Shown: in pieces, positions 6,411 to 61,838 of the stretch
How positions within the stretch are numbered: the stretch's first letter is position 1
Layout: every line of letters starts with the position of its first letter
Assembly: GCA_008632985.1 (NCBI GenBank)
Contig: QPGO01000077.1
Coordinates: forward strand, 248,001-312,000
Direction: 5' to 3'
Length of the DNA: 64,000 nt
From: Psammoneis japonica
Lineage: Eukaryota
Notes under the pieces: generated by a model
Seen by the model: only the letters and a program-made list of their open reading frames with translations
Databases searched by the model: none
Told to the model about the DNA's origin: nothing
Translations under genes and position numbers: made by a program

Positions 6411-6575
6411 GCGCGATCAAGATTTTTTTTGTGGCGCAGGCGTTGAATTTCGCGCGCAAATTTTGGATACGACTACGATTACCGATTACACCTTACAACT
6501 CAGATCAAAACAGCCTCATTCATCTTCAGTTTCCTGAAGGGGTTGCGGGAAACACAACCAGAACAATCTGCAACA

Positions 6576-36470: not shown

Positions 36471-36818
36471 CAACTGCTCCAACGGCACGGCTTGCTTAAA
36501 ACAACAGACAACTCGTTCGGCTTCTTTTTCCTTCGTCTTGTTGCCATTTCCTTTCTAGCACCTGTTTGGTCCGCTTGCCAAAATTAAGTTGACGCAGCAA
36601 AGCAGACATTTACGTGTTCTCGCGATTGACGAAAACCAGAACGAAGCAAGAATTACAGATGCGTGAGATCATGGCGAGAGCAACTATACTCTCTAGGGGT
36701 ACAGAGAGAATGATTTATGACAGTTGATAGTCCTCGAGACAACAAGTACTACCATGCTCTATCATATAAACAAGTATTATAGAGTAGTTCAATCCCCCTA
36801 TGAGACAATGAAAACGTA

Positions 36819-38552: not shown

Positions 38553-39463
38553 TCAAAACTTCTGATAGAACGTCGTGTTTGAGACCGTCACGTTCCAGTC
38601 CGCGCAGTCTTTCGTGATGAATGTTTCGAGGTTGGTACCCATGTACGTTTCAAAGGACGTAGTGGCTCCAAGAGCACGAAGGGCTCGTCGTCCTCCATCG
38701 CCATCGTCTGGGTTACACGTAGTTCCACAGTCTGCATCTCCCACCAAGTCAGTGGCCCACTGTCGATTCCTCCTCCTCCTCAAGGACCGAACATTTGTGG
38801 TCGCGTTTCTGTCTCCGCCCGACGTCGTCGTGGCAAATGGAGAGGTCAGTAATGGCGTTTCAGTAGTCTCTTGGATTGAGCCCTGAGAAAACACCTTAAC
38901 GACGGCCTTCTTCGTGGCATTTTTGCGTCGTCTTTCACGTACAACACAATTTTCTTGTCACTATCGATATGATGCGTGAGCTTTTGAAGTTCCCATGGGT
39001 CCACGATGTCCTGACGTTTCTTTTTGTCCACAGCATATTTCTTGACCATGTCATCCATATGTGTTGCCATGGACAACTCAATACACATAATGACGTCTTT
39101 GTCCGGACCAACATCCGTGTCTTGAGGACTTCCTTCTTCCACCTCCTGGTCGACCACCATTTCTATCTTGTACTGTGCGGTGGGCGACGCGGCCGTCGGT
39201 GGGTCTGTTTTGTACGCTACACCTGCAGTAGACGATGCCGTAGGCTCGGTGGTCAAGTCGGCTGTGGGACTATCGGTGACCGGCGATGGCGTCAGAGCTA
39301 CTGGGCTGTAGGTGACCTGAGCTACAGGTGCTGTTGTTGGAACCGCTACAGGACTGTAGGTGACCTGAGCTGCAGGTGCTGATGTTGGAAACGCCTCACC
39401 AAAAGGATGGTATCCAGCAATCATCAGTGAAACCAAAATCAAATCAACTGGACGAAACACCAT
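38553..39463 (-). CDS. Secreted protein, paralog 2 with PT-rich linker (apparent frameshift near 38905)
   Basis: Signal peptide and a TAPVAQVTYSPVA repeat. Near-identical core to 36819-37561. Confidence 0.75.
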
Positions 39464-42732: not shown

Positions 42733-43641
42733 ATGACGACGGAACTGACTGCATTCTACCTCAAAAGGCTTGGTCTCGCTGACGCCGAGCTGGACGAGGA
42801 CGCTACCGTTTCCAAGCTTTCAACCGTTGTGGAAGCTCATTTAAATAAAATACCCTTTGAAAATCTGGCACAACACGGTGCTGTAGGTGGACCGGTCGTG
42901 TTGGATGTTCCCACCATAAAAGACAAGATTCTTGTGCGGAAACGGGGAGGTTTTTGTCTCGAGCTGAATGGACTCTTTGCAGAGCTCTTGATAGAATGGG
43001 GCTATGAGGTCAAGAGAATTCCTGCTCACGTCTTTGTCAATGGCTGCTTTTCGGACGACCAACCAGCGAGTCACGTCGTGTTGCTTGTGGATGTGCCTGA
43101 ATCCAAATCCGAATCGGAAAGCTCAACGTGGTTTGTCGATGTTGGCTTTGGAGAACCATCCATTCAACCACTCTTTTACGAGGTTGGTGGAATGGAACAA
43201 GAAACGCCGGAAGGAATGATTTCTCGGTTTGTTCACGACGGACCGTTCGTTGTGCTCGAGTGGTTTGTACACGCTCAAGAGACTTGGAAACCGCGTCTCC
43301 GGTGGGAGGCAGACATGGTGGAGAAAGGAGGAGTTGATCCACAGTACTTCCAAAAAGCGCTTGACCATGTCTATCAAGATGAGAGTGCTTTTTCGCAAAA
43401 GATAATTGTGTGTCGCTTGACACGAACGGAGAAGCTATCCTTGGCGGGCTGCAGTCTCAAGCGAACGGGCCCGCCGCGGTTTGGTAAGGACCCGCCCCCA
43501 ACCACAATCACGACGCTTGATTCCATTACACAAGTGAAGACTGTGTTCTGGGAGGAGTTTGGAATGCCAATAGAAGAAACGGAGGGACTCGACTTGACCA
43601 AATCCTTGCAAGCGCCGTCAGCGCTTTGGACACAGATGTAG
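42733..43641 (+). CDS. Arylamine N-acetyltransferase family protein
   Basis: IPFENL, RKRGGFCLELN (Cys), SHVVLLV (His) and FVDVGFG (Asp) give the catalytic triad. Confidence 0.92.
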   Translation: MTTELTAFYLKRLGLADAELDEDATVSKLSTVVEAHLNKIPFENLAQHGAVGGPVVLDVPTIKDKILVRKRGGFCLELNGLFAELLIEWGYEVKRIPAHVFVNGCFSDDQPASHVVLLVDVPESKSESESSTWFVDVGFGEPSIQPLFYEVGGMEQETPEGMISRFVHDGPFVVLEWFVHAQETWKPRLRWEADMVEKGGVDPQYFQKALDHVYQDESAFSQKIIVCRLTRTEKLSLAGCSLKRTGPPRFGKDPPPTTITTLDSITQVKTVFWEEFGMPIEETEGLDLTKSLQAPSALWTQM

Positions 43642-43808
43642 CTCGCCGGAGAGGAAACAAAGGAGGAAGCATGTCACTCGCCTTTCGCCAACAATGCAAA
43701 GATACCAACCTTTATGCTACATTTGACGGGTGGGAGAAAAAGTATACAAAACCATGGAAAATGTGTAACTTCCAGCCTACAAAGCTGCCTACTAATCAAA
43801 AATCTGAT

Positions 43809-44885
43809 TCATGGTTCGTCGTCATCAGTGTCACTACTCTCGCTGTAACCGGGTTGGTATGGATTACAAAGAGGGCATGAAATGCTCTCGTCATCGTCTG
43901 CTTCTACATCATAATCAACAATTCTGGGATCACAGTCTTGGCAAAAAACGTGGCGCTCGTCTGCGCCACACTGGTACCAACACAATTCGCTGTCCTCTTT
44001 GCAGTTGTTGCATTGGATATTTTCACACAGCTCATGATTCGTACATGTTTGAAAGCAACATCCATTATAATAATCATGATCATACGTGAGCTCGCATGCC
44101 CTGCATCCACACGTCGCACAGGTGTAGTATTCGTACACGACGTTATTCGAATATCGGCATTCATGACACTGATGCTTTTCACACACGTGACAAATCATGC
44201 CCTCCGCACAACACTCGCAGTATCGTGCTTTGTGACGATCCGGTCTGGCGCAAATCGCATGGTATTCCTCCTCTGAACCTGCCGCAAAACGGCATTCCAC
44301 GCAGCTTGGATATTCTCCGCACTCTGTGCAAATTTTCACTTGAGCTTCCACCAAAGGATCAGTGCGGAGTATATCAGCTATTTCATACCGTTCATGGATC
44401 AACGCCTTATCCAAAAGACCCTTGACAGTTGCATCGTCGTGCTTGTTCTGATCAAGCAGTCGCCGCATCATGAATTCATCTTTGTACTCGATTGCAAACA
44501 AGAAGAACTCTTTAAGCAAAAGACCCTCCAGAGTAGGATTTTCCAACAGATTATTTGAGAATTGCTCTCGATCGACTTGCTTATAGAGCCGCTCAATGTT
44601 CTCGGAAATCTGCACGTGGTGGTAAACTCCAAATAATTCCCTAGTAAGGATGCAGTTTCGAACTAGAAACTGCCAGTCTATCTCACGGCAAAAGTACCGA
44701 CAGGTTAGTTGGAGAGACGTAATTCTCTCGTTTGCTTCTAGGAAGCTATAAACATGCACGAGAATATCTTTGGTTAAAGTCATGGCTGGAGGCATGTCAT
44801 CATCCGTTTTGAACCGAAAACTACGAGAAGGAGCTTCCGACGGATCATCCTCATCAGTGGCCTTTCTCTTCTTCGCCGAAGACAT
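43809..44885 (-). CDS. F-box protein with Cys-rich (CxxC) C-terminus, copy A
   Basis: LTKDILVHVYSFL...LQLTCRYF F-box pattern and many CxxC pairs. Paralog at 59137-60393. Confidence 0.7.
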   Translation of the reverse strand: MSSAKKRKATDEDDPSEAPSRSFRFKTDDDMPPAMTLTKDILVHVYSFLEANERITSLQLTCRYFCREIDWQFLVRNCILTRELFGVYHHVQISENIERLYKQVDREQFSNNLLENPTLEGLLLKEFFLFAIEYKDEFMMRRLLDQNKHDDATVKGLLDKALIHERYEIADILRTDPLVEAQVKICTECGEYPSCVECRFAAGSEEEYHAICARPDRHKARYCECCAEGMICHVCEKHQCHECRYSNNVVYEYYTCATCGCRACELTYDHDYYNGCCFQTCTNHELCENIQCNNCKEDSELCWYQCGADERHVFCQDCDPRIVDYDVEADDDESISCPLCNPYQPGYSESSDTDDDEP

Positions 44886-44963
44886 TTTCGTTTTTATATC
44901 AAAAGGGAAATCCCGGTAGTAAATCGTTATTATCTTCTTCGAGACAAACTATTTGTCACTATA

Positions 44964-47900
44964 CAATGGCTATCCAGCAGTTCCTCACATCCAGCCACGG
45001 TTACATAATAAGTAGGATTTGTACAGTAGAATTCGTTGAAACATACTGTACGACGTCAGCAAGAACATGTGTCTGGTATGCATCCTACATAATATATACA
45101 GTACATACTACCGTAGGGCTATTGTCAGTACATGCATTACGAGACGACATGATTCACAAGTGGGATGAAAGGAACGTGCCGATCATGAGGATACACTGCA
45201 ACAACACACATCTGTTACACTTGGCAGTAGATCGAGATATGAGGCGTCATAGTCGTACAAACGTCGTATAGTCGTAGTGGGTAGAACCGACTTCAACTAC
45301 GAGATACATCATCGCACATTGAACTTCCACAAGACATCGTTCCCGCTGACGTTCACAACCTCACCGGTGTGATGCCGCTGCTGTTAGCAGCACATCCCAA
45401 TGTAGAGCGCACGAGCGAACGATGACGTGTCAAGCAAATCGAGACGAGCGATCTACAACGTGTCGGGTCCGTCAATCATGCACGGAAGTTTGCTTCAACC
45501 CTCATTTTTCATGAGATCTGAACTTTTGCAAAGGAAGACTCTCCAGCCATCTCGACACAAAGCATCGCCAGTTGCAGCTGAGACAACATCTGCGGGGACC
45601 AGAACACACTGGTCGCAGAGTCTGCAGAGACCGGGAAACACCGGTTGCAGATTTGTCATGTCGCATTCATTGTCATTCATTGCACTCTTGACACACTGAA
45701 GATTCACTGCACACACTCGTCTGCTGAGTCCAGAAAACACTGGAAGTGGACCCTGCAGTGACTGGGAACACCAGTTGCAGGTCGGATTGTCTGCCATCCA
45801 TTGATCACATTGACTTTACTCAGATTGTTCTCATTGCAAGTCTCATGGGTCGTTGTGTCATCTGGTGTGCACCCATTGCTGCGTTGTTGGCTCAACTCAT
45901 CTTTGCGCAGTGTGAGCCTGCCGTTGCAAGCTGTCTCATGGATGACAGCAACACCAGGCACCGAGACAACACAAACAGACGTTTTGAGAAGCTTCATTGC
46001 AGGAATGGAAACGAGTGCGTCCCTTGGGTTTGTTTGGTGTGTGACAGATTGTCAAAACTGTCTCAGACCACTCGACTTTCTGTCAACAAATTGAAAGAAG
46101 CCAGACACCTGTTAACTCCATCTGAATGGAACCAAGTGTCGGAAGACCTGCACGATTGTTGTTGCATCGATGACGACCACATTCCACGGGATTGCCGATG
46201 GATTTCCGACCTGTTGCTTTCGCCAAGAGCTCGACATGTTGTTCCGAACGACAACAGAAGGTCTGAAGGATTCACTTGTTGCAGGCCTTGTAAAAGGAGT
46301 CTCTGCACTGCTTCCATGCCTCCACATGCAACAGCAAACAATTGCTGTTTTGGAACACCACCACCTGAATTATCGTGTCTTGCCGAAGCAGAACCAGCTT
46401 CATTGACACCTGTGAAAACATGTGGCTGCTGCTTCAGTTTTGTCAGTGGCAAACAGAAGAAACCACAAGGCAGTCTTTCCCATTGCAAGATAAACATGAA
46501 GAGCATCGCCCGCACCATTGTGCACTTTGACGTGTTGAACCTTCATCAAAATGTGGTTGTGTTGGCATCCGGCAAAATGACACCAGAGCAAAGGCGAACG
46601 GCCAGACAAAAGAACAAAATCAGGACTCACTGTGTAATGAGAGCACTGGAATGGCTTGTCCATCACCACGAGAATTGGATGAATCAAGACATCGATCTAG
46701 AGGAAGTGCGAAGCAATTTACAGAATCCAGTTTTAGTGGACAACAGCAGCCCAGACGAAAGCGAAAATGCAAACATTGAAACCACGGAGTCCCACAGTGT
46801 TTGTTTCCCCGATGGTGCCGTTTCTTCAACAACTGGTGGACAACGTAATTTAGACAGCTTCAAAGACTTGGTGCACGATGCAGCTGCAAGCGGTTTTGAC
46901 ATTGAATTCAAAGCTGATCTTTTGAAAGAATCAGTCAGTGACTTTAAGGATGACAACCTGGCAAATGCTTGCTTGCTGCAATTTCCTTGTGGGCGTGGCG
47001 GCATTGATGAAACAAGAATGAAAGAAGACGGGAGTCTCGCCGACTGTGCAAATCTAGCACATTGCGCAGATCACTTGGCCCGCATTTCTCAGCCCCATTT
47101 CCACAAGCAACTCTTTGTTCTGACCCTGTGCAATCTGACTGTGAAGCAACGAATGGTGCACAGTGCTGGATGGAAAGCAAGAGACAAAAATCAAGCCAGA
47201 CAATTCTCAAATGAACTGACACAAGACGACGTCGACCGTGCCACATGTGACAGACAGACTGGTGAACGCAGGAATTACGCATTGGGACATCGTTTCTTAA
47301 GTGCAGTGGATGTGGTGTCGGCATCTATTCCATGTGCAAATGAAGCAGCAAAAAAAATGAGAAGAAATGCTGAAACCTGCCAACACCACTTTGGACAACC
47401 TGGAGTGTTTTTGACGACAAGCCCCGATGATGCCAACTCCTTTTTAGTTCAAATTTGTGCGGACATGCTCATCGACAAAGGCAGAGATGTGACAGAAATG
47501 TCGGATGAAGAATTGGCAGAAAAGGCTAAGGCAAGAAACGAGCTTCGTGTGGAGCACCCAGGTGTCACGGCTTTTGCACTCGAAATGTCATTGGAAATCG
47601 TCATAGAAGAAGTGACAGGATGGGACTTAAAAAGGAATTCACCCAGAGAAGATTTTGAATTCTACGTGGGGAGACCCTCCGCTTTCATAGCTGCAATGGA
47701 AGAACAAGGTAGACTCTCGGCACACGGTCACATTCAGGCATGGTTTGAAGACACAAACACAGCAAGAGACAATCTGCATTCTGACAACAGAGATTTTAGG
47801 CGTGATGGTAAAAGAACACTGTCCAAACTGACCAGTCGGATCTGCACAACTGGGTTGACATGCAGCGAGGATTGCACTCGACTGTCCATCATAGAGACTT

Positions 47901-49324
47901 TTGATCATGATTGCACTGTTAATCTTGCCTGTTGCACTGTGCCTAAAACAGTCAGTAATCAGCAGCTTCGATGCCCAAGGCACAAGCACGGTCAGAAATC
48001 AAAAAACGGCATGTTCGCGCATTGCCCTCATTGTGCTAAATGCTGGACAAACCCAGAGTTTGTGGCATGTCATTTGTTGAGTAACAACCGCGTCCCTGGT
48101 CTGACTGCTTGTCCAGACAACACAACAAAGAGACTTAAAGCCATGTGTGTTCAGTGTCAACAATCCGATGAGAATGGGACAATCGAACCATGTGTTCCAG
48201 ATGCTGCATGCAGCCATCACATGCATGCTAACATCGCTTGTTTTTCTAAGCTGAAACAATTTCCAAAAAACAGAAAAAATTCCGAGAATGAAATGACCAC
48301 TGGCAGAAGCGCGCGCAAGCGTAAATTGCACGAGATGCAAAATGCCGATTGCCGTTTCAATCTCCCCGCCGCACACAGTAAAACAAAAGCATCGATCCAC
48401 CCACCTTTTCGCTCAAGCCTGAGTCTTCCACTTTCAAAGCCTGTCCAAAGGACCCAACCCAACAGATGACAGCTGAAAAAAAAGAGAAACACATGCTCAG
48501 ACTGAAAGTGACCCAATTGCCATTCATGACAAACAATGCGACTGCAGGACACAAGCTTCAAGGAAGCGGTGTCGACAATGTGTTTGTACATGGCTGGAGC
48601 TGTGCACAAAACTGGGCATGTGTCATGCTCTCCAGGGTTAAGACCAGAAATGGTCTGTGTCTTCGGCAACCGCTGAAGAGAGATTTAAGTCTACACAGAC
48701 TGCCGGATGGGCACAACGCCCTGCTCCGGTTGATGGAAGGAAAAAGTGTCACACACTTCACCAACGAACAGTGTGATGACATTTTGCAGTCCAATTAACA
48801 CATGGAACATTTTGATGCTGCATGTGGGAATTGTTTCTACATTTTGGAAAATGTTCCAAGCTTTGCACGCGGGCTTGCAGGTGTGCCCGGCAACAACCGA
48901 TAGAAAACAAAGGGTCCAATCTAACAAATCGATGTTAGCACATTGTTGCAATGACAGACACACTCAGCAACCAGTGATGCACAACGTCAGGACAGTTCTC
49001 TTGTCATCTGCTATAGAACGATCGCACCAGAATTGTCAAAAAGGGGAAACCCACGTCTCTTCTTACAATGCATCCACACACGAATGCAAGAATTAAATCG
49101 CCATTTTTTGACACAATGTTAAAACATAAACATGGAATTACGTCGCACATTAACCAATTGCGAACCCATCATTTAAGCGTGAGAATTTTTTAAAAAAATG
49201 ATTGGTGGCAAGCAAAGATCAAAGCTCTAAAATTTGATGCTCGCGCGCATGGCAATCCAAACCAGCCCGGGTTCCACACCTCCTCACTTCGTGTCCAGAG
49301 TTCCTGCCACAAAGGAGGAACCAA
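44964..49324 (+). mobile_element. Internally deleted Helitron-like element
   Basis: Absent from the duplicate copy (empty site cactaTAgcaact near 60470). Encodes a Rep/helicase relic. Has a 3' hairpin gttcct-N10-aggaac just before the end. Confidence 0.85.
45746..48798 (+). pseudogene. Helitron RepHel relic (DUF6570-like region, HUH Rep and PIF1 C-terminus; helicase core deleted)
   Basis: Motifs LQFPCGRGG, FGQPGVFLTTSPDD (motif 1), EEQGRLSAHGHIQAW (HUH), CRFNLP, and QLPF...ATAGHKLQG...ACVMLSRVKT (PIF1 motifs V/VI). Confidence 0.85.
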
Positions 49325-49790
49325 TGGCAACTTCCGTGGCGATGGGACGCAGGAAGCTTGCTTGTGACAGACACCAGCAGTGGGAGTGTTGCGAGTTTTG
49401 TTGGTTGCACAGCAGTTGCGAATGGCAGCACGAAACCCGGAAAATGTTGCACGGATTCCATCATTGCGACTGTGATTCTGCTCTAATCTGAAATCTAGCT
49501 CTGGCTGGTCTCTAGAGTTGCGCTTGGAGCCCAGTCAAGAAGGAACAAAATGACTCGTCGCTGGGACCCACCCAAAATAGAAGTGTGTGATGAGCCATTT
49601 GAATGGCTGAAACTGATTCAAAGAAATGCTTGTGTTTGGCCAAAGAAAGTCAACTGATCGACAATGAACTCTAACTGCATGTAACGCGCCGTGTTTGTCA
49701 CATCCACCATGCCTGCACACACGGAACAATCACCTTCATTGTCAATCACAAGGTGTCTGTCCCATCACACGCATGCTCTTGAGCTCGATG

Positions 49791-50306
49791 TTACATCATG
49801 ATGAAGAAGGATCCAAAACCCAAAAGGACAGCAGCTGGCACATGGTGAGTGCGGACAGCGCCAACTCCGGAAGCATCCAAGCATGAGTGGGAAACTCCAG
49901 ATCCAGGACCACAAACATCCGGACGGGAACACCAGGCACCACACTGCTGAGCACAACGAATGGGGTTTGGAGGGGTCACGCTCAGATTAGGGCAACTGGG
50001 ACATTTGCACGAGGAAGCGTCATCGCAGATCTGATCCAATGTCGGAAGCGTTGTTGGAGGAGTGCAACAATCGAATTGCGAGCCCGCACTGTTCCCGCAA
50101 TTTTCGACGCAATGCGCATTGCATTCGACACTGTTATCACTGTCAGTGAATGGCTCGACAACTTTCGTCACATCGCAGACCTCTTCTGAACTGTCAGAAG
50201 AACAGAAACATGTTGTGGCAAATCCACTTCCATTGTCGGAACAGTTCTGTCCCTTGACATCGACAAAGAATGCAGAGAGCAACGACAAAGCAACAACGAT
50301 CTTCAT
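49791..50306 (-). CDS. Small Cys-rich secreted, possibly GPI-anchored protein, copy A (hypermutated, Tyr-free)
   Basis: Signal peptide and hydrophobic C-terminus. Close paralog of 60936-61454 with all four Tyr changed to His or Cys. Confidence 0.7.
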   Translation of the reverse strand: MKIVVALSLLSAFFVDVKGQNCSDNGSGFATTCFCSSDSSEEVCDVTKVVEPFTDSDNSVECNAHCVENCGNSAGSQFDCCTPPTTLPTLDQICDDASSCKCPSCPNLSVTPPNPIRCAQQCGAWCSRPDVCGPGSGVSHSCLDASGVGAVRTHHVPAAVLLGFGSFFIMM

Positions 50307-50631
50307 GGTCAACTTCTTTGGATGCTGCCGAAGTAACAGGTGTCAAGTAAACAGCTCAGAACTGCCAAGTCAGAAAAAGTGTATGTCTTTGATGAGCAAC
50401 TTTGAGATGGTGAGCGCGATCTTTTCACTCGCGCGAGAGATCAAGATGGCGGGAAATATTCACAGGGCAATACATATATTCAATTATGGGGTTGTTGTTA
50501 TAAAGAACGTCACAAGTTGAAGTTGTCAACGACAAGGCAATTTGAGTTTTCGAAAAATTCGATCTTGCTTCATGCAAAGGTTTTCTATGTAAGGTTCACT
50601 TTTGCGGTTCGCCCTCGCCACAACAACAACA

Positions 50632-53313
50632 ATGGGCAACTCCGAATCCACGCGTCCGTTAGAACAGTGGACCAAAGACGATGTGGCTAATTCTGTCGCG
50701 TCGTTGGGTGGACCAAAGTACAAGGAATACGCGTCTTCAATTCGCGATTCCGGAATTGACGGCGGTCTCTTGACCTCCCTGGAGGACAAGAGCGAACTGG
50801 AAGACATGATGGACGAGTTGGAGATTTCGTCCAAGATTCATCGAAGAGTGATTGCGCGAGCACTGGAGTCGTCACTTGAGGATCATCAAGAAGAAACTGA
50901 CAAGGATACAGCAGCTATCACTGCTGTCGAGACGACGTCCAAGCAAGTCGTGCCGGATTTTTTGGCTGCAGAAGAGTACGGCTTGACCGCCTTTACGCCT
51001 GTTTCCGAGATGCATGAGTTGGATGGACTCTCCCAACAACTCTTGCGATCCAATTCCAACACGAGTTATGCCGGCGTCCACTTATGTCGAACTGACGGGA
51101 TGCACGTATTGTGTGGAAACCTGCGTGGACCGAATGGACAAGTCACGCCTATGGATCGAGGGAAAATTATGGACCATGGACAAAGTTTTTGTTCTCAATT
51201 GGTGCTGGACAAGTCGAAAGATTTTGTCATTCGTGAGGCAACGCTTGAAGCATATCGTTCCATTGGATCCACCTATGTGGGCCACGTTCTCAAAAACGAA
51301 AACGGGTCAAGGCTGGGTGTGCTGTGTCAATTTACGACAGACTCGTTTCACGAGAGCCAACGATACGCAGAGTCCCTGCGACTCGTGTCTGCCGAGATTG
51401 CAGCGATGATGGAACAGCAACTCCGGCTGCGAAAACAATTACTCGATCGAAACAAGTCTCTTTCAGAACAAATTGAGACATCCAAAAAGGAATACATGGA
51501 CATGGTGAGAAATCAAGAGCAGGTTCAACGACAAGAAGACATAGCTAAGAGCGAATCACGTTCAGTTGAAGACCCATGTACGAACTCGAACTTGTTGCCG
51601 TTTGTCGCAAAGTCCCATCTGGCGTCCGAGTTGGAACGGGAGCACATTCCTGTCTCGGTTGACAAAGAGGCGTTTCTTCTCGGCATGCCAAAGCCACCAA
51701 TTGGAAAAGACGATATGGCTCGCGTAGCCAGGGTGGAGGCCTTGGGGTTGCACAATATCGATCCAAACTCGGCTATGGCCAAGCAGCTCAAAGGATTGAT
51801 TGCCCGGACGTGTTCCTTGTTTGGATTTCCGATCGTGACTATTACGATTCACAACCACATGCATCAATTTTGCTTAGGCATGATTGACAGTGGCCTTGGC
51901 ATCATCGACGTCATGGACGTAGTCAACCGTGATGTTGAAGGAACACCGTTTTGTTTGGCATATACACGGGGCGTCTCCGCCTGCAACTACACAATTCTCA
52001 AACGACGCACTTTTATGGTACCCGACATGAGCAAGGACGAAACGTTCAAAAATTACGGCGCCACGACAACCAGTCCATTGCGTGCCTATGTTGGTACCCC
52101 AATAATCTCTTTTGACGGATACGTTGTGGCTGTGCTTTGCATGCTGGACTCGGTTCCTAGATACGATTTCACAAAATCTCACGAATTGGAAATTGAACGA
52201 ATGGCTCTCCTCGTCACACAGAGTATTGAGAATTGGGAGCATCGTCGCCTGATGGATCAACTCCTAGAAGAACGTAAGCTTCTTGAACAGCTCAAAAGCT
52301 CCATGGCGATGCAGGCAAGCAAAAAGCGCGAAGCGCCATCTGGCGAGGTCACAATCGTACTAACGGATATTCAGGGCTCGACAGCGTTGTGGGAGGCTGA
52401 CGCTGAAGCCATGAAGGAAGCACTGATCCTTCACGATCAAATCATCCGAAAATGCGTCTCTCAACACAGTGGCTACGAGATCAAGACTGAAGGTGACGCA
52501 TTCCATTTGGCATTTCATGATCCCTTGGACGCCATTGGCTTTGCCCTTCAGGCTCAGATTGACTTGTACAAGGCGAATTGGTCCGACAATATTCTTGCCT
52601 TGCCCGATGCAGACGTCGATGGAGACGGCTGTTTTCGTGGCCTTCGTGTTCGGATGGGTATACACCATGGCAGCGCCACGCCACAGATCAACGAAGTCAG
52701 TGGGCGTGCATTATATTCTGGGAAAACGTTTCGGGTAGCCAAGAGTGTGGAGGCTCTGTGTTTTGGTGGACAGATACTCGCAACGGCCGAAACTTGGCGG
52801 GTTGTTTCTGAACTGAGCGAACAGTTGGGAACTCCTCAGGTAGTCGATTACGGAGAGTACATACTCATGACGGGTGAATTCATTGACGAAGGTATCATTG
52901 CAAAGGGGGTGGTACAGTTGGTTCCAAACGAGTTGGCGTATGATTACTTTAGTTTGACCGGGAGCACTGGTAGTAGCCAAGAGGCGCTAGGGTCATCAGC
53001 AGCAAGAGGACGGAGATTTCCGCAGGTCAAATCGACTCGTAGACTTACTTCATTGTTCCTGGATGCGCCCAACAACAATGGAGCAGTTACCATGCTGTTT
53101 GTTTATCCATCGGGGACCGATGACTTTCCTGATGACTTGGCGGACCGGACGCTTTCGATACTGACAAAAGTCGTCCGATTGCCAAGCAGGAGCAACTCCA
53201 TGCAAAGGATGTGCCACTCCCTGCCATCACATGCCATGGTCCCAGACATCATGATGCAGAGGGCATCATGCACCCTCATGCACTGGCACTCTGAGCATGA
53301 GTTTTGCCAATGA
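50632..53313 (+). CDS. Myristoylated SAM-GAF-GAF class III adenylate/guanylate cyclase, copy A; truncated near 53175 by an insertion
   Basis: MGNSES; SAM (WTKDDVANSV...IDGGLL); GAF (CNYTI...FMVPD...YVGTPI...VLCMLD); cyclase (VTIVLTDIQGSTALWE, KTEGDAF, VRMGIHHG). The last about 45 aa are TpA-free foreign sequence. Confidence 0.88.
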   Translation: MGNSESTRPLEQWTKDDVANSVASLGGPKYKEYASSIRDSGIDGGLLTSLEDKSELEDMMDELEISSKIHRRVIARALESSLEDHQEETDKDTAAITAVETTSKQVVPDFLAAEEYGLTAFTPVSEMHELDGLSQQLLRSNSNTSYAGVHLCRTDGMHVLCGNLRGPNGQVTPMDRGKIMDHGQSFCSQLVLDKSKDFVIREATLEAYRSIGSTYVGHVLKNENGSRLGVLCQFTTDSFHESQRYAESLRLVSAEIAAMMEQQLRLRKQLLDRNKSLSEQIETSKKEYMDMVRNQEQVQRQEDIAKSESRSVEDPCTNSNLLPFVAKSHLASELEREHIPVSVDKEAFLLGMPKPPIGKDDMARVARVEALGLHNIDPNSAMAKQLKGLIARTCSLFGFPIVTITIHNHMHQFCLGMIDSGLGIIDVMDVVNRDVEGTPFCLAYTRGVSACNYTILKRRTFMVPDMSKDETFKNYGATTTSPLRAYVGTPIISFDGYVVAVLCMLDSVPRYDFTKSHELEIERMALLVTQSIENWEHRRLMDQLLEERKLLEQLKSSMAMQASKKREAPSGEVTIVLTDIQGSTALWEADAEAMKEALILHDQIIRKCVSQHSGYEIKTEGDAFHLAFHDPLDAIGFALQAQIDLYKANWSDNILALPDADVDGDGCFRGLRVRMGIHHGSATPQINEVSGRALYSGKTFRVAKSVEALCFGGQILATAETWRVVSELSEQLGTPQVVDYGEYILMTGEFIDEGIIAKGVVQLVPNELAYDYFSLTGSTGSSQEALGSSAARGRRFPQVKSTRRLTSLFLDAPNNNGAVTMLFVYPSGTDDFPDDLADRTLSILTKVVRLPSRSNSMQRMCHSLPSHAMVPDIMMQRASCTLMHWHSEHEFCQ

Positions 53314-56300
53314 AGACTGGCAAGAAATGTGCCCACCAAGAGGTGAAGAACTTGATGGGAGTGCATTTGGGCAGGCTTGCACAAGCCCAACTGCTCAACA
53401 GTGATGATCAAGGTTCTGCACAATCAGTTCTCCCTGTGAGCCCATCTGCCATGTCACTTGCTGGACCAGAACTCCAGACCTGCTGATGAACCCAACAACA
53501 GTGCCAATCAAGGTGGCAGCCAGTGCTTGGTGGAGCTGGCAGCAGAGATCAGCATCATGAGCTGGGAGCTGCTTTCCCACCATGCATTGTTTTGCACCTT
53601 GAGCCACTCATGTGCCAGCAAAGCCACTCACAAGATTTGCCTTTTTGCATCATCCAAAAGGCATGTGCTTTGAGAATCATGAATGTTGTGGAGCCCATTG
53701 TAACCTGGCATTGGGCTGTCAATTTGCTGGATGACTTGCCTGGCTGCAGCCCTCACCTGCTGACTTTGTGTGACCCACACATCAGCAGTGCCCACAGAGC
53801 TCAGCAAATTGGGCAACCCAGCAGATGAGAAGGTGTGAAACTTTTGCACTCTTTGGGCTGAATCCAGTTGGCAAAACACCTGCACAGGGAACCCCACCTG
53901 GCAGGGAATGTGAGCAAGCTGTGACATCCAGCCACTGGGCTGTTGAACAGCCTGTGCACTGATGGAGCCCAAGCCCTGTTTGCTGCTGAAGACTGAGCCA
54001 CCATCAACCAAGACTCTGGAGGCTGTTGATTGCAGCAGCCATCTCTCCACTGACAACCACTTGCAGTTCCTGGAGGCAGACATGGCAGATTTGATCTAAA
54101 AATGCTGCTGGGTCATCCCATCTCACTGCATTGCCAAGATTCCTCCACATCTGTGGACTGCGGATGTTGCCCGAGTGGGTGTGGTGCCTCCTCAACAAGA
54201 CCAGCAACCATGCACCACAGTTGACTGCAGCTTTTGTGGCCTCAATGATGAGACTGAGATTTGCCCCCCCCCCCCCCCCACACACACACACACAGGAGGC
54301 CCTGCAATTTGGCCATGCACAGGACAAAGATGTTTGCCAAACTGGGGGGGCCAGACCCATGGCGAACACTGCATGGCACACCACAGATCTTCAACTTGCC
54401 TCTGACTCCACTGCATGCACTGGAACAACAACCCATCTTCCAATCATGTCAAGCCACTGCCCATCCAAATTGTGTGCCAGGCACAAGCCTTGGTCTGCAC
54501 CTCTCCCAGCGACACCATGTGCCATTGTCAACCCAGCCTGGGTCAGCCTCTTGCACTTGCTGCACCCCAGCAAAGACTCCAATGGCAAGGACAACACCCC
54601 CTGGTTTTTGCAGATGCATGAAACCTCTCATTGGATGGTCAATGTGTGACCTTGACTGCCTTTTCTTTGCAACACACAGCAGTCTGACCTTCAAAACACA
54701 AAAGTGCAGAGAGAGCACTCTTGAGATGGTTGGCCACAGCCAGAGCTCCCATCCCAATGCACCATGCCCAGTTTTGTGGCACTGGCATGTCAGGTCCACT
54801 GCTTTTGTTTGCTGGGTTTGAGCTCACACATGCAATGCATGGCCAGCTTTGGCGCTGTTGACACCACCAAAACCCATCCCCAGCCAATGGCAGGACACAC
54901 CCCTGAGCAGCGTGGGTGGCAATCAGCAGCTGCAGCAGAGAAGGACCAGATGTGCAACCCCAACCACAGCCTTGAATGGAATGGATCGCTGTGGCAGCTG
55001 CAATTTTGACCCACTGCTCCTGCCCTGTTTTGCTGGAGGTGGCTCTGACTCCAAGAAGCTTTGCCAACCCTGGCAAAAGAAGCTGCTGGCAGTGTGCCAC
55101 CCCCCAACACAGTGGGGCCCACTGCCAAGCAGGGTGGGTGGGCAGTTGGCTTTGTTGGGTTGCAAGCCAGTGGCATGAAACTTGCAAGCAGTGTTTGAAA
55201 TCCTCTCAGCCAACATGCATGTGTGGCAGCAGTGTGCACCAATTTGCAGCATGTGGTCTTCTTGCAAGGTGCTCAGTCCTGCCTTTGTCAAATGCTTCTC
55301 AGGACTCAGCAAGGCTTTGTGGTTTGTGCCACAGCAAAAACTGCAGACCAATGCAATGATGGCACGCCAACACCAACAACTTTTTCTGGCTGCCATGCAC
55401 ATGTTTGTTGCATCCAATTGGCAATTGCACTTTATCCACATGCAGGCAGCCTAACTTGTGCATGCTGGATGCAGCCAATTTGATGAAATGGTGCCAAAAT
55501 AAATCAAAACATGAACAAAGCATTTGAAAATTCAACAAAGCAATTGAGTGTGTCATCTCTTGCAGGGCACTGGGCCAGTGCTTTCCATTTGGTCATTGAG
55601 TTGAAGCTCCAGTCAGTTTGCAAAAACAAAGATCTCTTGGTGACACAGATGGACAGCAAGTTGAAACAGCGTGAGCATGCATCCCTGACAGACCTTGTCA
55701 AAAATGTCTTGGGCAGCTCAAGAACTCACAAAAAACTGATTGTCAAGTGTGAACCTGCCAAGAACAACAAAAAGAATGGAGTCACTTGACTGGCAGGGCA
55801 GCCAATGAGTGGACAATGAGACACGGGGCCATGGCACCACAGCTGTTGGCTCTCTGCACAAAACACCAACTGTTGCAACAGCCAGAGAGTGAGCCCACTG
55901 CAGTCAACACCAACAATCTTAAATTGCAATGCCTGGGGCAGATGCACTTGTGAAAAATGTGTGCGCTTCTCTTTTGAGCATTGAACAATCTGTTTTCTGA
56001 CCTGTGGCAAGAGTTGCTTGCCACACTCTGCATTGACACAGCTCACTTGTTGCCAGCTGATTTGAGAAGCAGAGAGCAGAGCAGTGTGCATTTGATGCCA
56101 AGTCTCAACAGAATTTTGTGCATTGAAACATGGCCTGTTTCCCATTGAAAATTTCCATTGTGGACCAAGGAAATTTTTTGAGTGACCAAAACAAGATTGC
56201 AAAGAATCATGTGGCTTTTTGACAAACCAAGCATCTTTCTCACATTTTCTTTGACAGCAAGACTTGCTTCTTTGTGTCAATTGCTCTTCTTTTTCTTCTT

Positions 56301-58480
56301 TTCTTCATGCTCCACATCTTCTTGAGCAGTGTGCACTTCTTCTTGTTTGTCATCATCAGCCAATTGTTTCGTGCTTTGAGAGGTCAAGCCACCACCCACC
56401 AATTTGTCCATGTCTCTCCACTCTCCACCACAAGGCTGATGGCATGCAAATGAACAACTGACAACTTGTTCCAAGTTGTGCAGTTTCTTGGCTGCTTTCA
56501 AAAAAGGCCACTTGCCATGAAAAAGACAACAAAGACACACAAGCCATTGTCGGTGCAATTGCTGGTGTGATTTCTGGGGGATGCAGGTGCACTTCAGCAC
56601 TGCCATGCTGTGATGAACACAAACCCCAACTGCAGCAGAACAGGACAGAAACGTGGACAGGAAACTGTCAGCAGTTTTTGGTTCTCAGGGGTGCTGCCTT
56701 GCTCAAAGCCCTCTCCATGTGAGTGACAAAGATGAGCAGAACAATGAAACAGAAGAGCAGCATGACTCAACTCCAACACAGAGCAAAAGCAGGGATTGGG
56801 AGGTTTGCAAAGCACAAACTTTGTTCACAACCATCAAAGCCACCACCATTTGCTTTCAATCAAATGACACAATGAAATTCTCCATCGTGGCAAAGACTGA
56901 CAAAAATTGCCGGTGCTGCTAAAAGGATCCAGAACAGTGTGCAATGGCTGCTCATGGTTTTTCATGTTGATGTCTGCTGATGAATTGCAAGAATGCATGC
57001 CTGAATGAGTGTCTTGCACAAATTCATGGCTGATGGTGCATGCTGTGCAAAAAGCTCCTGTCTGTGCAGCACCTCACATTGATGTGCTTTGGGGGCAGAT
57101 GACAGCTTCTGTCTTCAATTGGTGGGGGCACTTTTTAAAAAAAATGATTGTTTTAAATTTGAGGGGCAAGCTCTGAATTTGATTTGATTGTCATCTTGAA
57201 ACACAAAATCAGTTGTCACTTGCACTGTCATGGGTCTCACCAGTTTGTTTGCTCTTGTTGTCAGACATGCTTGTCACATCTCACACTCCTCAAATCAAGG
57301 TGCTGGTCTCAGCCAGCAGTGGTGCACCATGTCAGCATCCTCCTTTTGCACTTGTGCTGGTCCTTGGCTTTGTTGCTGGAACAAATGTCACACATCAACC
57401 AGAAAGCTGTGCACACTTGGTTGAGAGATTTGCTGCCAAAAAGAGAGAGTGCAGCATTTTCAATTTTCCTGGAAAAATGCAGCATGCCTGTGCAACACCA
57501 ACTCATTGCCAGAGTGGCACTTGCACATGAAGAGAGAATGAAGCATTGCAGCAGTGTCACTTGCATGGCATGATTGAAAGCCAGTCAACAACACTCCATG
57601 GTCTGATTGAGAACCAGTCAACAACACTTGCCCTGATGTTTCTGGTTGCTGAAATCATTGCTGCCAGACAGCTCAACACATGCCACCCAAATCAGCTGCA
57701 TGATTGAGAGATCAAGCAAGTGGGTTCATGCCCATTTGCACACTTCACTGTCCATTTGCACAATGCTGGCACCATGGGACAGCTGACAAACCATGCTTTC
57801 ATCATGGAGCAGGGCATTGTGATCACCTGCTGGCATTTGTGGCATGTGATCTAAAGTTGATGTTTGGTCAAACACCTCAACCAAAATGGGCTCAACTGTG
57901 AACACCTGTGACAAAAAAATGTGGTGACAAAAAGTCTGTTTTGTCAATGTTTTGTGCAAGCCAATGCCCTCATCTGCAAGTCTGACCAAGTTCTCACATG
58001 CATGCATCACCTCAAAAACAAAACAGGTGCAGGTGTTTGAGCAAGCGGGGCACTTGGTTTGAAACAATGAAGTGGACAAGACTGCACCACCTGACCACAC
58101 CAAGTTTGTCTGTGAGCAGTTTCTTCTTGGCCACTCTGCCTTTGTTTGGATGAAAGCTTTTCCTCTGCTCCTGGCAAGTTGCGTGGAAGCATGATTGCAG
58201 TTGGGCTGCATCCTGACAGATGCTTCTGCATCATGTCATTTGTGACCACTGCAGCAGCGTTTTTGTGTCATCAGCTGCAAGGATGAGAATCTTCTCTGTC
58301 AATGCTGCCAGGACACCTTGTTCGAGGAGACTTTGTCTTGTGTGTGTCTTCCACTTCCATGTGAAAGAAGGAGCAACAACAGTTTGGAAATGACCCGTTG
58401 GCTGTTGGTGATGCTTTGAGTTGCATGGGGTCGTGGGCACCACAGGTGACAGCAGGCGCAGGGTCTAGAGTCCTCAGTCG
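53176..58480. mobile_element. About 5.3-kb heavily TpA- and CpG-depleted insertion (degenerate TE or nested TEs)
   Basis: Abrupt composition switch inside the cyclase ORF. Only a few TA remain, mostly YTAA. No domain confidently readable. Confidence 0.6.
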
Positions 58481-58659
58481 GAGCCATGATGATGTGGTGT
58501 TGGGTTACAGAATGTAATGGCGAGATGGCGGGAAATGTGAATACAAACATTTAGTCATGCGGCAACGATTTTAGTCATTCGAAGTTGTCAACTGTCAACG
58601 ACAAGGCGAATTGATTTCGAAAAAAATGATGGTGAGGATCTTGCGTCTCTGTTCAGCCA

Positions 58660-59000
58660 GTGGTTTGTTCACGGCTAAAGACGTTTGGAAACCGTGTCTC
58701 CGGTGGGAGGCAGACATGTATGGTGGAGAATGGTGGAGTTGATCTACAGTACTTTCAAAAAGCGCTTGACCAAGTCCATCAAGATGAGAGTGCTTTTTCG
58801 CAAAAGATAATTGTGTGTCTCTTGACATGAACGGAGAAGCTATCCTTGGCGGGTTGCAGTCTAAAGCGTGGCCCGCCGCGGTTTGGTAAGGACCCCCCAA
58901 CCGCGAAAGGAGTTTGGAATGCCAATGGAAGAAACCGAGGGACTCCACTTGACAAAATCGTTGCAAGCTTGGAAAAAACGTAGAGCGCCGAAGAGAAAAC
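58660..59000 (+). pseudogene. Decayed 3' fragment of arylamine N-acetyltransferase
   Basis: tggaaaccgtgtctccggtgggaggcagacatg...atcaagatgagagtgctttttcgcaaaagataattgtgtgtc matches 43259-43640 with frameshifting indels. Confidence 0.88.
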
Positions 59001-59136
59001 AGAGGAGGACGCATTTCAGTCGTCTTTAGCCAACAATAGGAAGTTACCAACCTTTGTGCTGCATTGACGGATGGGAGAAAAAGTATACGAAAACATGGAA
59101 AATGAGTAACTTCCAGCCTACAAAGCTGCCCACTAA

Positions 59137-60393
59137 TCAAAAATCTGGTTCTTCTTCTTGGCATGCCCGGCATGGTCTTTCGTCATAAGCGTCACGGCAT
59201 GGTTCTTCGTTATCGGTGTCACTCTCGCTGTAATCGGTTGGGCAACAAAAACTGCAGATAATATGTTCAGGATTGATTGGGCATTTGTACCAGTCCAAAG
59301 GTCCATCCCGCGTATTGAGAGTTGTTGCGCCGCATCGGAATGCATAATAGCATTCACGCAAGCACCTCCCACGACAAGCAGGGCATGCAATGCTCTCGTC
59401 GTCGTCTGCCTCTACATCATAGTCAACAATTCTGGGATAGCATTCTTGGCAAAAAACGTGTCTATCATCTGTGCCACACTGGTACCAACACAATTCGCTG
59501 TTCTCTTTGCAGTTGTTGCATTGGATATTATTACACAGCTCATGATTCGTACATGTTTGGAAGCAATATCCATGATAAGAATCGTCATCATACATGAACT
59601 CGCATGCCTCATTTCCACACGTCGCACAGGTGTGGTATTCGTACACGAATTCATGAGAATCTCGGCATGCCTCACACTGATGATTTTCACACACGTGACA
59701 AATCATGCCCTCCGCACAACACTCGCAGTATCGTGCTTTGTGACCATCCGGTCTGGCGCAAATCGCATAGTATTCCTCCTCTGAACCTGCCGCAAAACGG
59801 CATTCCACGCAGCTTGGATATTCTCCACACTCTGTGCAAATTTTCACTTGAGCTTCCACCAAAGGATCAGTGCGGAGTATATCAGCTATTTCATACCGTT
59901 CATGGATCAACGCCTTATCCAAAAGACCCTTGACAGTTGCATCGTCGTGCTTGTTCTGATCAAGCAGTCGCCGCATCATGAATTCATCTTTGTACTCGAT
60001 TGCAAACAAGAAGAACTCTCGAAGTAATAGATCCTCCAGAGTAGGATTTTCCAACGGATTATTTGAGAATTGCTCTCGATCGACTTGCTTATAGAGCCGC
60101 TCAATGTTCTCGGAAATCTGCACGTGGTGGTACTTTCCAAAAAACTCCCGAGCAAGGATGCAGTTTCGAATCAAAAACTGCCAGTCTCTCTCACGGCAAA
60201 AGTACCGACAGCTTAGTCGGAAAGACGTTATTCTCTCGTTCGCGGATAGGAAGCTATAAACATGCACGAGAATATCTTTGGTTAAAGCCATGGCTGGAGG
60301 CATGTCATCATCCGTTTTGAGCCGAAAAGTGCGAGAAGAAGCTTCCGACGGATCATCCTCATCAGTGGCCTTTCTCTTCTTCGCCGAAGACAT
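59137..60393 (-). CDS. F-box protein with Cys-rich C-terminus, copy B (longer C-terminus)
   Basis: Paralog of 43809-44885 with about 60 extra C-terminal residues. Confidence 0.72.
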   Translation of the reverse strand: MSSAKKRKATDEDDPSEASSRTFRLKTDDDMPPAMALTKDILVHVYSFLSANERITSFRLSCRYFCRERDWQFLIRNCILAREFFGKYHHVQISENIERLYKQVDREQFSNNPLENPTLEDLLLREFFLFAIEYKDEFMMRRLLDQNKHDDATVKGLLDKALIHERYEIADILRTDPLVEAQVKICTECGEYPSCVECRFAAGSEEEYYAICARPDGHKARYCECCAEGMICHVCENHQCEACRDSHEFVYEYHTCATCGNEACEFMYDDDSYHGYCFQTCTNHELCNNIQCNNCKENSELCWYQCGTDDRHVFCQECYPRIVDYDVEADDDESIACPACRGRCLRECYYAFRCGATTLNTRDGPLDWYKCPINPEHIICSFCCPTDYSESDTDNEEPCRDAYDERPCRACQEEEPDF

Positions 60394-60935
60394 TTTCGTT
60401 TTTATATCAAAAGGGAAATCCCGGTAGTAAATCGTTATTATCTTCTTCGAGACAAACTATTTGTCACTATAGCAACTTCCGTGGCGATGGGACGCAGGAA
60501 GCTTGCTTGTGACAGACACCAGTAGTGGGAGTGTTGCGAGTTTTATTGGTTACACAGTAGTTGCGAATGGCAGTATGAAACCCGGAAAATGTTGCACGGA
60601 TTCTATCATTGCGACTATTCTACTCTAATCTGAAATCTACCTCTAGCTAGTCTCTAGAGAGTTGCGCTTGGAGCCTAATCAAGAAGGAATAAAATGACTC
60701 GTCGCTGGGACCCACCCAAAATAGAAGTGTGTGATGAGCCATTTGAATGGCTGAAACTGATTCAAAGAAATGCTTGTGTTTGCTCTAAAGAAAGTTAACT
60801 AATCGACAAGGAACTCTAACTGCATGTAACGTGCCGTAAGCATCACATCCATCATACCACACACACGGAACAATCACCTTCATTATTAAATCATAAGGTA
60901 TCTGCCCCATCACACGCATGCTCTTGAGCTCAGTA

Positions 60936-61454
60936 CTACATCATGACGAAGAAGGATCCAACACCCAAAACGACAGCAGCTAGCACATGGTGAAAGCGGA
61001 CAGCGCCAACTCCGGAAGTACTATCCAAGCATGAGTAGGCAACTCCAGATCCAGGACCACAGACATCCGGACGGGAACACCAGGCACCACACTGCTGAGC
61101 GTAGCGAATGGGGTTCGGCGGGGTCACGTTCAGGTCAGGGCAACCGGGACATTTGCACTCGGAAGCGTCATTGCAGATTTGATTTAATTCCGGACGCGGT
61201 CCTGGAGGAGCGTAACAATCAAATTGCGAGCCCGTACTGTTGCCGCAATTTTCGACGCAATACGCGCTGCATTCGGCACCGTTGTCACTGTCAGTGAATG
61301 GCTCGACAACTTTCGTCACATCGCAGACCTCTTCTGAACTGTCAGAAGAACAGAAACATGTCGTGGTAAATCCACTTCCATTGTCGGAACAGTTCTGTCC
61401 CTTGACAACGAGAAAGAATGCAGAGAGCAGCGAAAAAGCAACAACAAACTTCAT
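60936..61454 (-). CDS. Small Cys-rich secreted, possibly GPI-anchored protein, copy B (unmutated)
   Basis: Signal peptide MKFVVAFSLLSAFFLVVKG, Cys-rich core, and a hydrophobic tail after SGVG. Confidence 0.75.
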   Translation of the reverse strand: MKFVVAFSLLSAFFLVVKGQNCSDNGSGFTTTCFCSSDSSEEVCDVTKVVEPFTDSDNGAECSAYCVENCGNSTGSQFDCYAPPGPRPELNQICNDASECKCPGCPDLNVTPPNPIRYAQQCGAWCSRPDVCGPGSGVAYSCLDSTSGVGAVRFHHVLAAVVLGVGSFFVMM

Positions 61455-61838
61455 GGTCGACTTGTTTGGATATGATACTGCCGAAGTAACAGGTATCTGG
61501 TAAACAACTCAGAACTGCCAAGTCAGAAAAAGTATCTTTGAGATAGTGAGCGCGATCTTTTCACTCTCTGGCTTCTCTGTCTTCTTCCGTACCACTTACA
61601 GACCTCCCAGTTGGGAGTGCTCTCTGGCTGGCACGAGATCAAGATGGCGGGAAATAATCACAGGGCAATATATATATTAAATCATGAAGTTGTTGTTTTA
61701 AAGAACGTCACAAGTTGAAGTTGTCAACTGCAAGGCAATTTGAGTTTTCGAAAAATTCGATCTTGCCGCACTCCGTCTTATTAATACACTACTTACTGTA
61801 CTTGCAGAGGTTCACTTTTGCGGTTCGCCACAACAACA

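Follow-up and report, generated by a model that had tools for sequence, protein, structure and literature searches.

Probable asymmetric loss of TA dinucleotides from one copy of a local duplication beside a Helitron-like insertion

In our full-text literature searches, targeted hypermutation of TpA to TpG or CpA in DNA was described only in a 2026 preprint on Bigelowiella natans (Mettrop et al., bioRxiv 10.64898/2026.01.13.699255). In the mutation accumulation experiment reported there, two integrated viral regions had gained 231 mutations, of which 230 were A-to-G or T-to-C changes, all of these on TpA, and the de novo rate in part of the culture lines was roughly 1e-7 to 1e-6 per site and generation. 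The same source reports genome-wide clusters that are poor in TpA and rich in CpA plus TpG, a subgroup of low-TpA coding sequences with a mean TpA frequency of 0.0018, and an enrichment of transposon-related Pfam families among the depleted coding sequences; it proposes an ADAT2-like enzyme and discusses deamination against selfish elements. Here, we analyzed a 64,000-nucleotide stretch of DNA (the window; contig QPGO01000077.1, positions 248,001 to 312,000, deposited under Psammoneis japonica; positions below count from its first letter). It contains a local segmental duplication of which one copy, A, carries a Helitron-like insertion and, next to it, host DNA that is strongly depleted in TA in comparison with copy B.

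Fungal repeat-induced point mutation (RIP) leaks into neighboring single-copy genes in Neurospora and Leptosphaeria. RIP resembles the pattern described here in that a mutational genome defense (PMC7296669, PMC2621366) riddles transposons with one context-specific transition, can saturate and can overrun adjacent unique genes. The direction, however, is the mirror image: RIP makes TpA from CpA or TpG, whereas here TpA appears to have been destroyed into CpA or TpG. Furthermore, RIP, a feature of fungal hosts with a RID or DIM-2 type methyltransferase, requires a duplication and mutates both of its members, whereas only one copy was affected here and duplicated flanks of 93.6 to 96.7% identity were untouched. 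ADAR hyper-editing and the ADAT2/TadA and APOBEC-type nucleic-acid deaminases of antiviral defense share the A-to-I(G) chemistry and the preference for U or T before the edited A; they differ in that the changes at this locus are fixed on both strands in the genomic DNA of a transposon and of unique host sequence.

A self-BLAST of the window showed that the duplication is longer than the two stretches aligned by eye in an earlier model-made note on the letters alone (the sequence-only reading). Copy A consists of 43259-44963 and 49324-52793, separated by 4360 bp (44964-49323) without a counterpart in B, and copy B covers 58659-64000, where it leaves the window at its end. The segments compared below are termed A-mid (49324-50430) and B-mid (60469-61566). 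Local and global alignments of these segments yielded 1086 aligned ungapped positions with 91.1% identity. At 32 sites, a TA in B-mid corresponded to TG (17 sites) or CA (15 sites) in A-mid, and the reverse was found at 2 sites (binomial p = 6.9e-8). The formal alignment thus confirmed that the asymmetric loss of TA in A-mid is real. The sequence-only reading had counted more than 20 such changes and had called reciprocal ones rare; its twelve quoted examples were all visible in the alignment, and the asymmetry was stronger than it had stated. From the 41 aligned TA of B-mid, 32 were CA or TG in A-mid (78% converted), 8 were retained and 1 was otherwise changed, while A-mid contained 10 TA, 8 of them common to both segments. 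Other differences did not follow this pattern. Non-TA transitions were symmetric (9 versus 13), transversions numbered 26, and CpG-type differences were roughly symmetric (9 versus 6); with 42 CpGs common to both segments (55 in B-mid, 49 in A-mid), the statement that most CpGs are shared also held. When TA-type sites were left aside, the divergence was 5.8% (63/1086), compared to 6.4% in the neighboring left segment, and the GC content was 0.49 in A-mid versus 0.47 in B-mid. Both strands were hit, as the sequence-only reading had proposed, with no preference between TG and CA (p = 0.86); its assignment of the change to A to G is subject to the caveat that TA is its own reverse complement and that A-to-G and T-to-C on both strands are therefore indistinguishable by sequence.

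The loss was confined to a part of copy A. In three other duplicated segments, TA-type counts were symmetric (3:5 and 4:5 for the left segment, 5:2 for the right; total, 12:12), and 12 of 132 TA were converted in these segments, compared to 32 of 41 in A-mid (Fisher p = 4.5e-17). Accordingly, the observed/expected ratio (O/E) of TA was 0.61 in the left segment of A and 0.57 in that of B, similar to the value of 0.62 in B-mid. Binned along copy A, conversion amounted to 8/10, 8/11, 7/9, 4/4, 2/2 and 3/5 up to position 50430 and to 1/10, 0/6, 1/11, 2/15 and 1/24 beyond it, which marks a sharp stop near 50430. This position lies in a region of about 300 bp between two divergent genes, one for a Cys-rich protein and one for a GAF-cyclase. 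Since the other segments were symmetric and conversion dropped beyond 50430, the effect represents a sharply bounded tract and is not a property of the duplication. On its left side, the tract ran uninterrupted from the TA-poor part of the insertion (14.6 TA/kb) into the host flank (10.8 TA/kb in A-mid; 40 to 42 in normal DNA). It thus covers the Helitron-like insert with the exception of its first 540 bp, but also 1.1 kb of host DNA. A search of sequencing runs for this DNA listed three runs of one sample and no RNA data set; the sample is the same as that of the assembly, so that their agreement with it is not independent; contigs over 49609-50166 matched A with 0 other letters at a single-copy-like depth of 36 to 42. 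The process was not triggered by repetition, because the duplicated flanks (a 1.1-kb left segment with 93.6% identity and a 2.4-kb right segment with 96.7%) and the multi-copy first 540 bp of the insertion were untouched and the depth of A-mid was single-copy-like.

The insertion has the features of a truncated multi-copy Helitron-like element. Its word depth in contigs of the same sample was 660 to 2600, versus about 50 to 90 in the flanks, and the joint of the empty site (44963->49327) was present in one contig, which carries the letters of B. The insertion encodes an open reading frame (ORF) of 874 amino acids with the domains Helitron_like_N (PF14214, E = 1.5e-9) and DUF6570 (PF20209); a search of solved structures with this ORF gave no match. 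The ORF was 31 to 45% identical to 16 full-length homologues of 1610 to 2012 amino acids, which also carry PF05970, and the best of them showed 44 to 45% identity over 88 to 93% of the ORF. The PIF1-type helicase part was not found in the ORF, which stops at 874 amino acids, and the insert ends 857 bp later. Because the homologous RepHel proteins continue into a PIF1 helicase, we regard the insert as truncated at its 3' end. Canonical Helitrons have 5'-TC...CTRR-3' ends and insert between A and T without target duplication. Such ends were not found here: the first letters of the insert are CAATGG and its last are AACCA, after which ATG follows, and its 3' end is not the element's own. The insert has ATA (44961-44963) to its left and ATG (49324-49326) to its right; at the empty site, B has ATA. 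The two triplets may represent a 3-bp target duplication, and identity by chance is also possible. In the case of a true duplication, the right ATG would be one directly polarized TA-to-TG change after insertion.

The sequence-only reading had claimed that TA was lost from A, beside the Helitron, and not gained in B. Composition, contiguity, outgroups of the Helitron ORF and differences between Helitron copies all support this direction. B-mid had 42.8 TA/kb (z = +0.26; normal mean, 39.4) and 156.6 CA+TG/kb, whereas A-mid had 10.8 TA/kb and 194.2 CA+TG/kb, and either value was reached by none of 163 overlapping windows of 1.1 kb from the normal regions of this stretch. The Helitron ORF, into which the tract continues, contained 2 Tyr among its 874 residues (0.2%), compared to 2.7 to 3.8% in 15 homologues, together with 5.9% Cys and 4.6% His. 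At the 16 columns with a Tyr majority among the 16 homologues, it displayed 11 Cys, 2 His, 2 Phe, 1 Ile and no Tyr; Cys and His are the exact products of TAY changing to TGY or CAY. Other conserved residues were kept at 50 to 100%, mostly at 79% or more (lowest: Lys and Ser, 50%; Thr, 62%; Val, 64%; Ile, 67%), and three changes of Leu to Pro, two of Val to Ala and one of Ile to Thr all fit TA to CA. Related Helitron loci from metagenomes had 29 to 61 TA/kb in 23 of 25 cases, and the TA-poor state is therefore the derived one. Finally, among the 21 variants displayed inside the insert, five adjacent pairs showed TG in one Helitron copy versus CA in another (45605-6, 47047-8, 47333-4, 47406-7 and 48658-9), and 4 sites were TA in other copies and CA or TG here. 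Each double difference looks as though a single ancestral TA or CG had been resolved independently in the two copies. Inside the Helitron, the change thus ran from TA to TG or CA. These observations support A as the mutated copy and B as the one that kept the ancestral TA, and we infer the same direction for the 32 sites of the host flank.

A consistent strand bias was not observed across the Helitron ORF, the tract and a RepHel protein derived from the European Nucleotide Archive (P0010). In the ORF, conserved Tyr residues had been replaced by Cys in 11 cases and by His in 2 (p = 0.02); over the tract as a whole, CA was slightly more frequent than TG (skew, -0.08), and P0010 was tilted in reverse (11 Cys versus 16 His).

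Several observations weigh against loss of TA from copy A at this locus. The 32 sites are polarized indirectly, by composition, contiguity and analogy. Many contigs share the TA-poor words of the Helitron at high depth, and much of its TA loss may predate the insertion; for this reason, the Helitron evidence indicates that the process exists in the lineage and not that it acted at this site. The left flank abutting the insertion and the first 540 bp of the insert were unaffected, which symmetric spreading from the transposon does not predict. In addition, CpG-type changes in the pair were not asymmetric (9:6) although older TA-poor blocks of the window, described below, are CpG-depleted, and a link between the loss of TA and that of CpG is therefore tentative. 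An outgroup of the pair was not found: the Cys-rich protein had no homologue at E <= 0.001 among proteins of 94 to 300 amino acids, and the best match of the GAF-cyclase was 33% identical, the asymmetry stopping short of the cyclase gene. An allelic form of A was not found in the contigs, where all 19 displayed other letters outside the insert were those of copy B.

Taking all the evidence together, we consider it highly probable that a Helitron-like element was inserted into A after the duplication and that a region-targeted change of TA to TG or CA followed there, B keeping the ancestral TA. According to this model, the local segmental duplication would have come first, followed by insertion of the truncated element into copy A. 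A region-targeted process would then have converted the A:T pair of 5'-TA-3' to G:C on either strand, over a tract that begins within the element, near 45500, and ends near 50430. It would thereby have spilled over 1.1 kb of unique host DNA that includes a secreted-protein gene and halted in the intergenic region between this gene and the next. Enzymatic adenine deamination in DNA by an ADAT2/TadA-like enzyme is a candidate chemistry, attack on the T of TA being formally equivalent. The natural substrate of ADAT/TadA is A34 after U33, a preference that would explain the T before A. The targeting may depend on a chromatin or transcription domain that starts in the 5' region of the element, and not on repetition. 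The tract is one-sided: it takes in the element's truncated ORF, the 3' junction and host DNA as far as a promoter region, and spares the left flank and the 5' end of the element. Such a shape is consistent with a domain starting at the promoter of the element itself. In one version, a read-through transcript, antisense to the secreted-protein gene, could give double-stranded RNA; in another, a silent-chromatin domain would be bounded by active promoters.

The best-surviving alternatives to loss of TA from A were both very unlikely. The first is a RIP-like process, with A ancestral and C-to-T changes at CpA (TpG on the other strand) creating TA in B. A comparison of the two sequences alone fits a change of CA/TG to TA equally well at all 32 sites, the segment is duplicated, as RIP needs, and C-to-T deamination is the commoner chemistry; yet this reading requires an ancestor with 10.8 TA/kb and 194 CA+TG/kb, values beyond all 163 normal windows, and a copy B that became normal by coincidence. 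RIP would also have to have hit one copy only, in 1 of 4 duplicated segments, leaving the others 93.6 to 96.7% identical. In A, the tract extends without a break into a TA-poor transposon, for which the outgroups reveal the loss of TA (Tyr to Cys/His), an AT-rich, TA-enriched region was absent from the window (its one low-GC bin is a run of N), and RIP cannot yield the TG-versus-CA double differences between Helitron copies. With the direction wrong, one copy hit and the duplicated flanks untouched, we rejected RIP-like C-to-T change in copy B. Just as improbable is the overwriting of A-mid through ectopic gene conversion by a TA-depleted paralogue elsewhere, for example, a copy captured inside a Helitron. 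The depth of 36 to 42 over 49609-50166 was like that of single-copy flanks and far from the 660 to 2600 of the element, and the divergence at non-TA sites, which is close to that of the left segment, fits collinear descent. These results oppose conversion even though Helitrons capture host fragments and the converted tract in host DNA begins exactly at the insertion junction.

An artefact is less probable still. Base-calling or polishing errors at modified bases (methylated CpG, modified A in TA) in silenced regions could be suspected, as the TA-poor blocks lose exactly the two self-complementary pyrimidine-purine steps that are able to carry symmetric modifications and the runs all came from the assembly's own sample, with the library type not recorded. 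However, read-built contigs agreed with A-mid with 0 other letters, the same footprint appeared in an unrelated metagenome contig and in the P0010 protein, and miscalls at symmetric sites would not sort neatly into either TG or CA; moreover, the B. natans mutations came from an experiment in which Illumina data were used for calling (bioRxiv 10.64898/2026.01.13.699255). Selection against UpA in transcripts, which is under-represented in most transcriptomes (PMC3829696) and would fit the window-wide TA O/E of 0.44, or GC-biased gene conversion at a recombination hotspot is equally hard to credit, the former because the 467 non-coding bp of A-mid lost TA as strongly as the coding part (20 TA-type sites, 0 reverse), the latter because non-TA sites were symmetric without an excess of A/T-to-G/C changes (9 versus 13), and both in view of the sharp edges and the 78% loss in a pair that is otherwise about 6% diverged.

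A 500-bp profile and dinucleotide counts placed the tract in the context of the whole window. Normal parts contained about 40 TA, about 59 CG and 138 to 146 CA+TG per kb, and four sharply bounded blocks were almost devoid of TA (Table 1). In the block at 53190-58500, the gain in CA+TG (about +100/kb) approximately equaled the loss of TA and CG (about 93/kb) relative to normal regions. The Helitron tract at 45500-49323 was intermediate (14.6 TA, 34.8 CG and 198 CA+TG per kb) and was carried on by A-mid (10.8, 44.3 and 194). None of 15 ORFs in the TA/CG-null blocks matched a Pfam family. The blocks presumably represent ancient targets, saturated by the same process, with CpG decay in addition. 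At 5 of 8 block edges, the TA-poor part reached beyond the CG-poor part by about 200 to 630 bp, and at the other three the two coincided within about 50 bp. Overshoot into flanks thus seems to be general, and the loss of CpG (presumably decay of 5-methylcytosine) seems to be a separate, slower consequence of silencing. The CpG decay known from methylated transposons resembles the older blocks, with their 4.5 to 16 CG/kb against about 59 in normal DNA and a matching gain in CA+TG. It leaves the loss of TA unexplained, however, and differs from what was found in the symmetric CpG-type changes of the A/B pair and in the reach of the TA-poor parts beyond the CG-poor ones.

The same footprint was detected outside the window. 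A metagenome Helitron contig (L007, 1-7761) had 13 TA in 7.8 kb (1.7 TA/kb), with 18 CG/kb and 212 CA+TG/kb, and P0010 kept 4 of 35 conserved Tyr residues, 27 of 35 being Cys or His. Another metagenome Helitron locus, L018, was rejected as an instance of the signature; it was low in TA without a gain in CA+TG and was simply GC-rich.

The TA that survived were not a random sample of contexts. In the four blocks, 25 of 27 were of the TAA/TTA kind, compared to 544 of 1470 in normal DNA (p = 3e-9), and in the 45500-50430 tract the fraction was 50 of 68. In L007, TAA/TTA made up 11 of 13 surviving TA, versus 827 of 1909 in eight TA-normal Helitron loci (p = 0.004). The A/B pair displayed the same tendency: candidate adenines with A as the following base were converted in 4 of 21 cases and others in 27 of 59 (p = 0.04). 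The most refractory sequence was TTAA, which reads T-A-A on both strands. The extended motif would thus be close to T-A-(not A), or to (not T)-T-A in the case of attack on the thymine.

Transitions at TpA, on both strands, local and independent of repeats, would place this locus within the type of TpA hypermutation described for B. natans. Compared with the preprint (bioRxiv 10.64898/2026.01.13.699255), the two cases share transitions that occur only at TpA and lead to TpG or CpA depending on the strand, the A/T-to-G/C direction, a sharply local action, the possibility of single-copy targets and long-term footprints poor in TpA and rich in CpA+TpG (2 to 3 TA/kb in the blocks described here). 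They differ in that the organism is apparently another one and that the target is a Helitron-like transposon instead of integrated viral regions. Three protein searches, in a collection drawing on NCBI and JGI, gave no near-identical entry, with best matches at 33% and 45% identity; in Atlas look-ups, the nearest ADH cluster consisted mostly of diatoms, a weak hint at the organism, and Vps35 was not informative. Also peculiar to the present locus is the 1.1-kb spill into a unique host gene with a paralogue as control, and it is known from sequence, not from de novo mutations. The words CpG, Helitron, flank, context and trinucleotide are missing from the main text of the preprint, and to that extent CpG co-depletion, TAA/TTA sparing and flank spill-over are not described there for B. 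natans. The locus provides an independent confirmation, drawn from sequence only, of TpA hypermutation in what appears to be another organism. The properties it may add are the transposon target, the spill-over into a host gene measured against its paralogue, the lack of a duplication trigger, the sparing of TAA/TTA and the co-depletion of CpG.

More broadly, the process might constitute a DNA-level "anti-RIP", in which the A:T pairs of TA are edited to G:C across a chromatin or transcription domain seeded by a mobile element and not by repeats, which exists outside chlorarachniophytes too, is widespread enough to turn up in contigs of environmental Helitrons and overruns into host genes. We offer this generalization tentatively and rate it somewhat short of probable. 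If it were true, it would entail directed amino acid change (Tyr to Cys/His, with no new stops) in fast-evolving secreted proteins, and the paralogue pair would be the first natural control for the reach (about 1.1 kb), the edge (promoter region) and the motif (T-A-not-A) of the process. The paralogue design could be used genome-wide to determine reach and specificity.

The host gene within A-mid encodes a small Cys-rich protein, without a Pfam family. The proteins of copies A and B differed at 31 of 171 aligned residues, 8 of them of the TA type, and only 12 codons differed synonymously; the genes appear to be fast-evolving or relaxed. The four Tyr of the B protein are His, Cys, Cys and His in A, which has 18 Cys versus 16 in B. 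The reading frame of A is unbroken because mutation of TA to TG or CA cannot create stop codons. For the host, the loss of all four Tyr and the gain of two Cys in a secreted protein with an intact frame may be a cost or an opportunity.

Table 1. Coordinates of the features discussed, in positions of the window
Feature	Position	Strand	Description	Basis
TA-depleted tract of copy A	45500..50430 (about)		From ~540 bp inside the insertion to the intergenic region upstream of the minus-strand gene	500-bp profile, counts, binned fate of B TA
Copy A left duplicated segment	43259..44963		Matches B 58659-60471; abuts the insertion; not TA-depleted	Self-BLAST
Copy A, A-mid	49324..50430		Unique host DNA; 32/41 TA converted to TG/CA	Alignments, composition, depth
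Copy A right duplicated segment	50431..52793		Start of the GAF-cyclase gene; not TA-depleted	96.7% identity to B, TA-type 5:2
Copy B left duplicated segment	58659..60471			Self-BLAST
Copy B, B-mid	60469..61566		Without insertion; TA content normal; taken as near-ancestral at TA sites	
Copy B right duplicated segment	61567..64000		Leaves the window at its end	
Insertion, copy A only	44964..49323	+	4360 bp; 3'-truncated multi-copy Helitron-like element	Absent from B, word depth, junction letters
First ~540 bp of insertion	44964..45500		Multi-copy, depth 792-2040; normal TA and CG, spared	36 TA per 500 bp, O/E 0.99
Helitron Rep ORF	45845..48466	+	874 amino acids; Rep half of RepHel protein, Tyr codons converted, without helicase part	
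Four TA-null blocks	~2100-4000, 11600-16000, 35000-36450, 53190-58500		Sharply bounded; 2-3 TA/kb, 4.5-16 CG/kb, 220-243 CA+TG/kb	
Overshooting edges (TA-poor beyond CG-poor)	near 2024/2250, 3921/4239, 15703/16337, 34830/35170, 58258/58466			
Cys-rich protein gene, copy A	49791..50306	-	171 amino acids, predicted signal peptide, 0 Tyr, frame intact	
Cys-rich protein gene, copy B	60936..61454	-	172 amino acids, 4 Tyr, 16 Cys	
GAF-adenylate/guanylate cyclase gene	ORF 50632-53313	+		Pfam PF00211, PF01590

Approximately 120 nt at the end of the cyclase ORF (53190-53313) fall within the TA/CG-null block beginning near 53190. The 3' end of this gene was either truncated by an old insertion or mutated, and copy B leaves the window before the corresponding position. 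A further local duplication (1632-2144 and 5927-6421, about 85% identical) flanks a run of N at 4688-5586 and ends where the first TA-null block begins; as a second internal control it was uninformative, its duplicate stopping at the block's start. Another local duplication, of about 69% identity, was found between 36818-37459 and 38552-39187.

In the window, genes are long single ORFs. The genes of B. natans are intron-rich, and the window is therefore probably not part of the published B. natans genome. The Vps35 gene (27337-29872, minus strand) is split over three adjoining ORFs, which suggests introns or frame changes. Genes for Utp25, ClpP and the mitochondrial ATP synthase b subunit lie near Vps35, as would be expected of an ordinary eukaryotic nuclear region.

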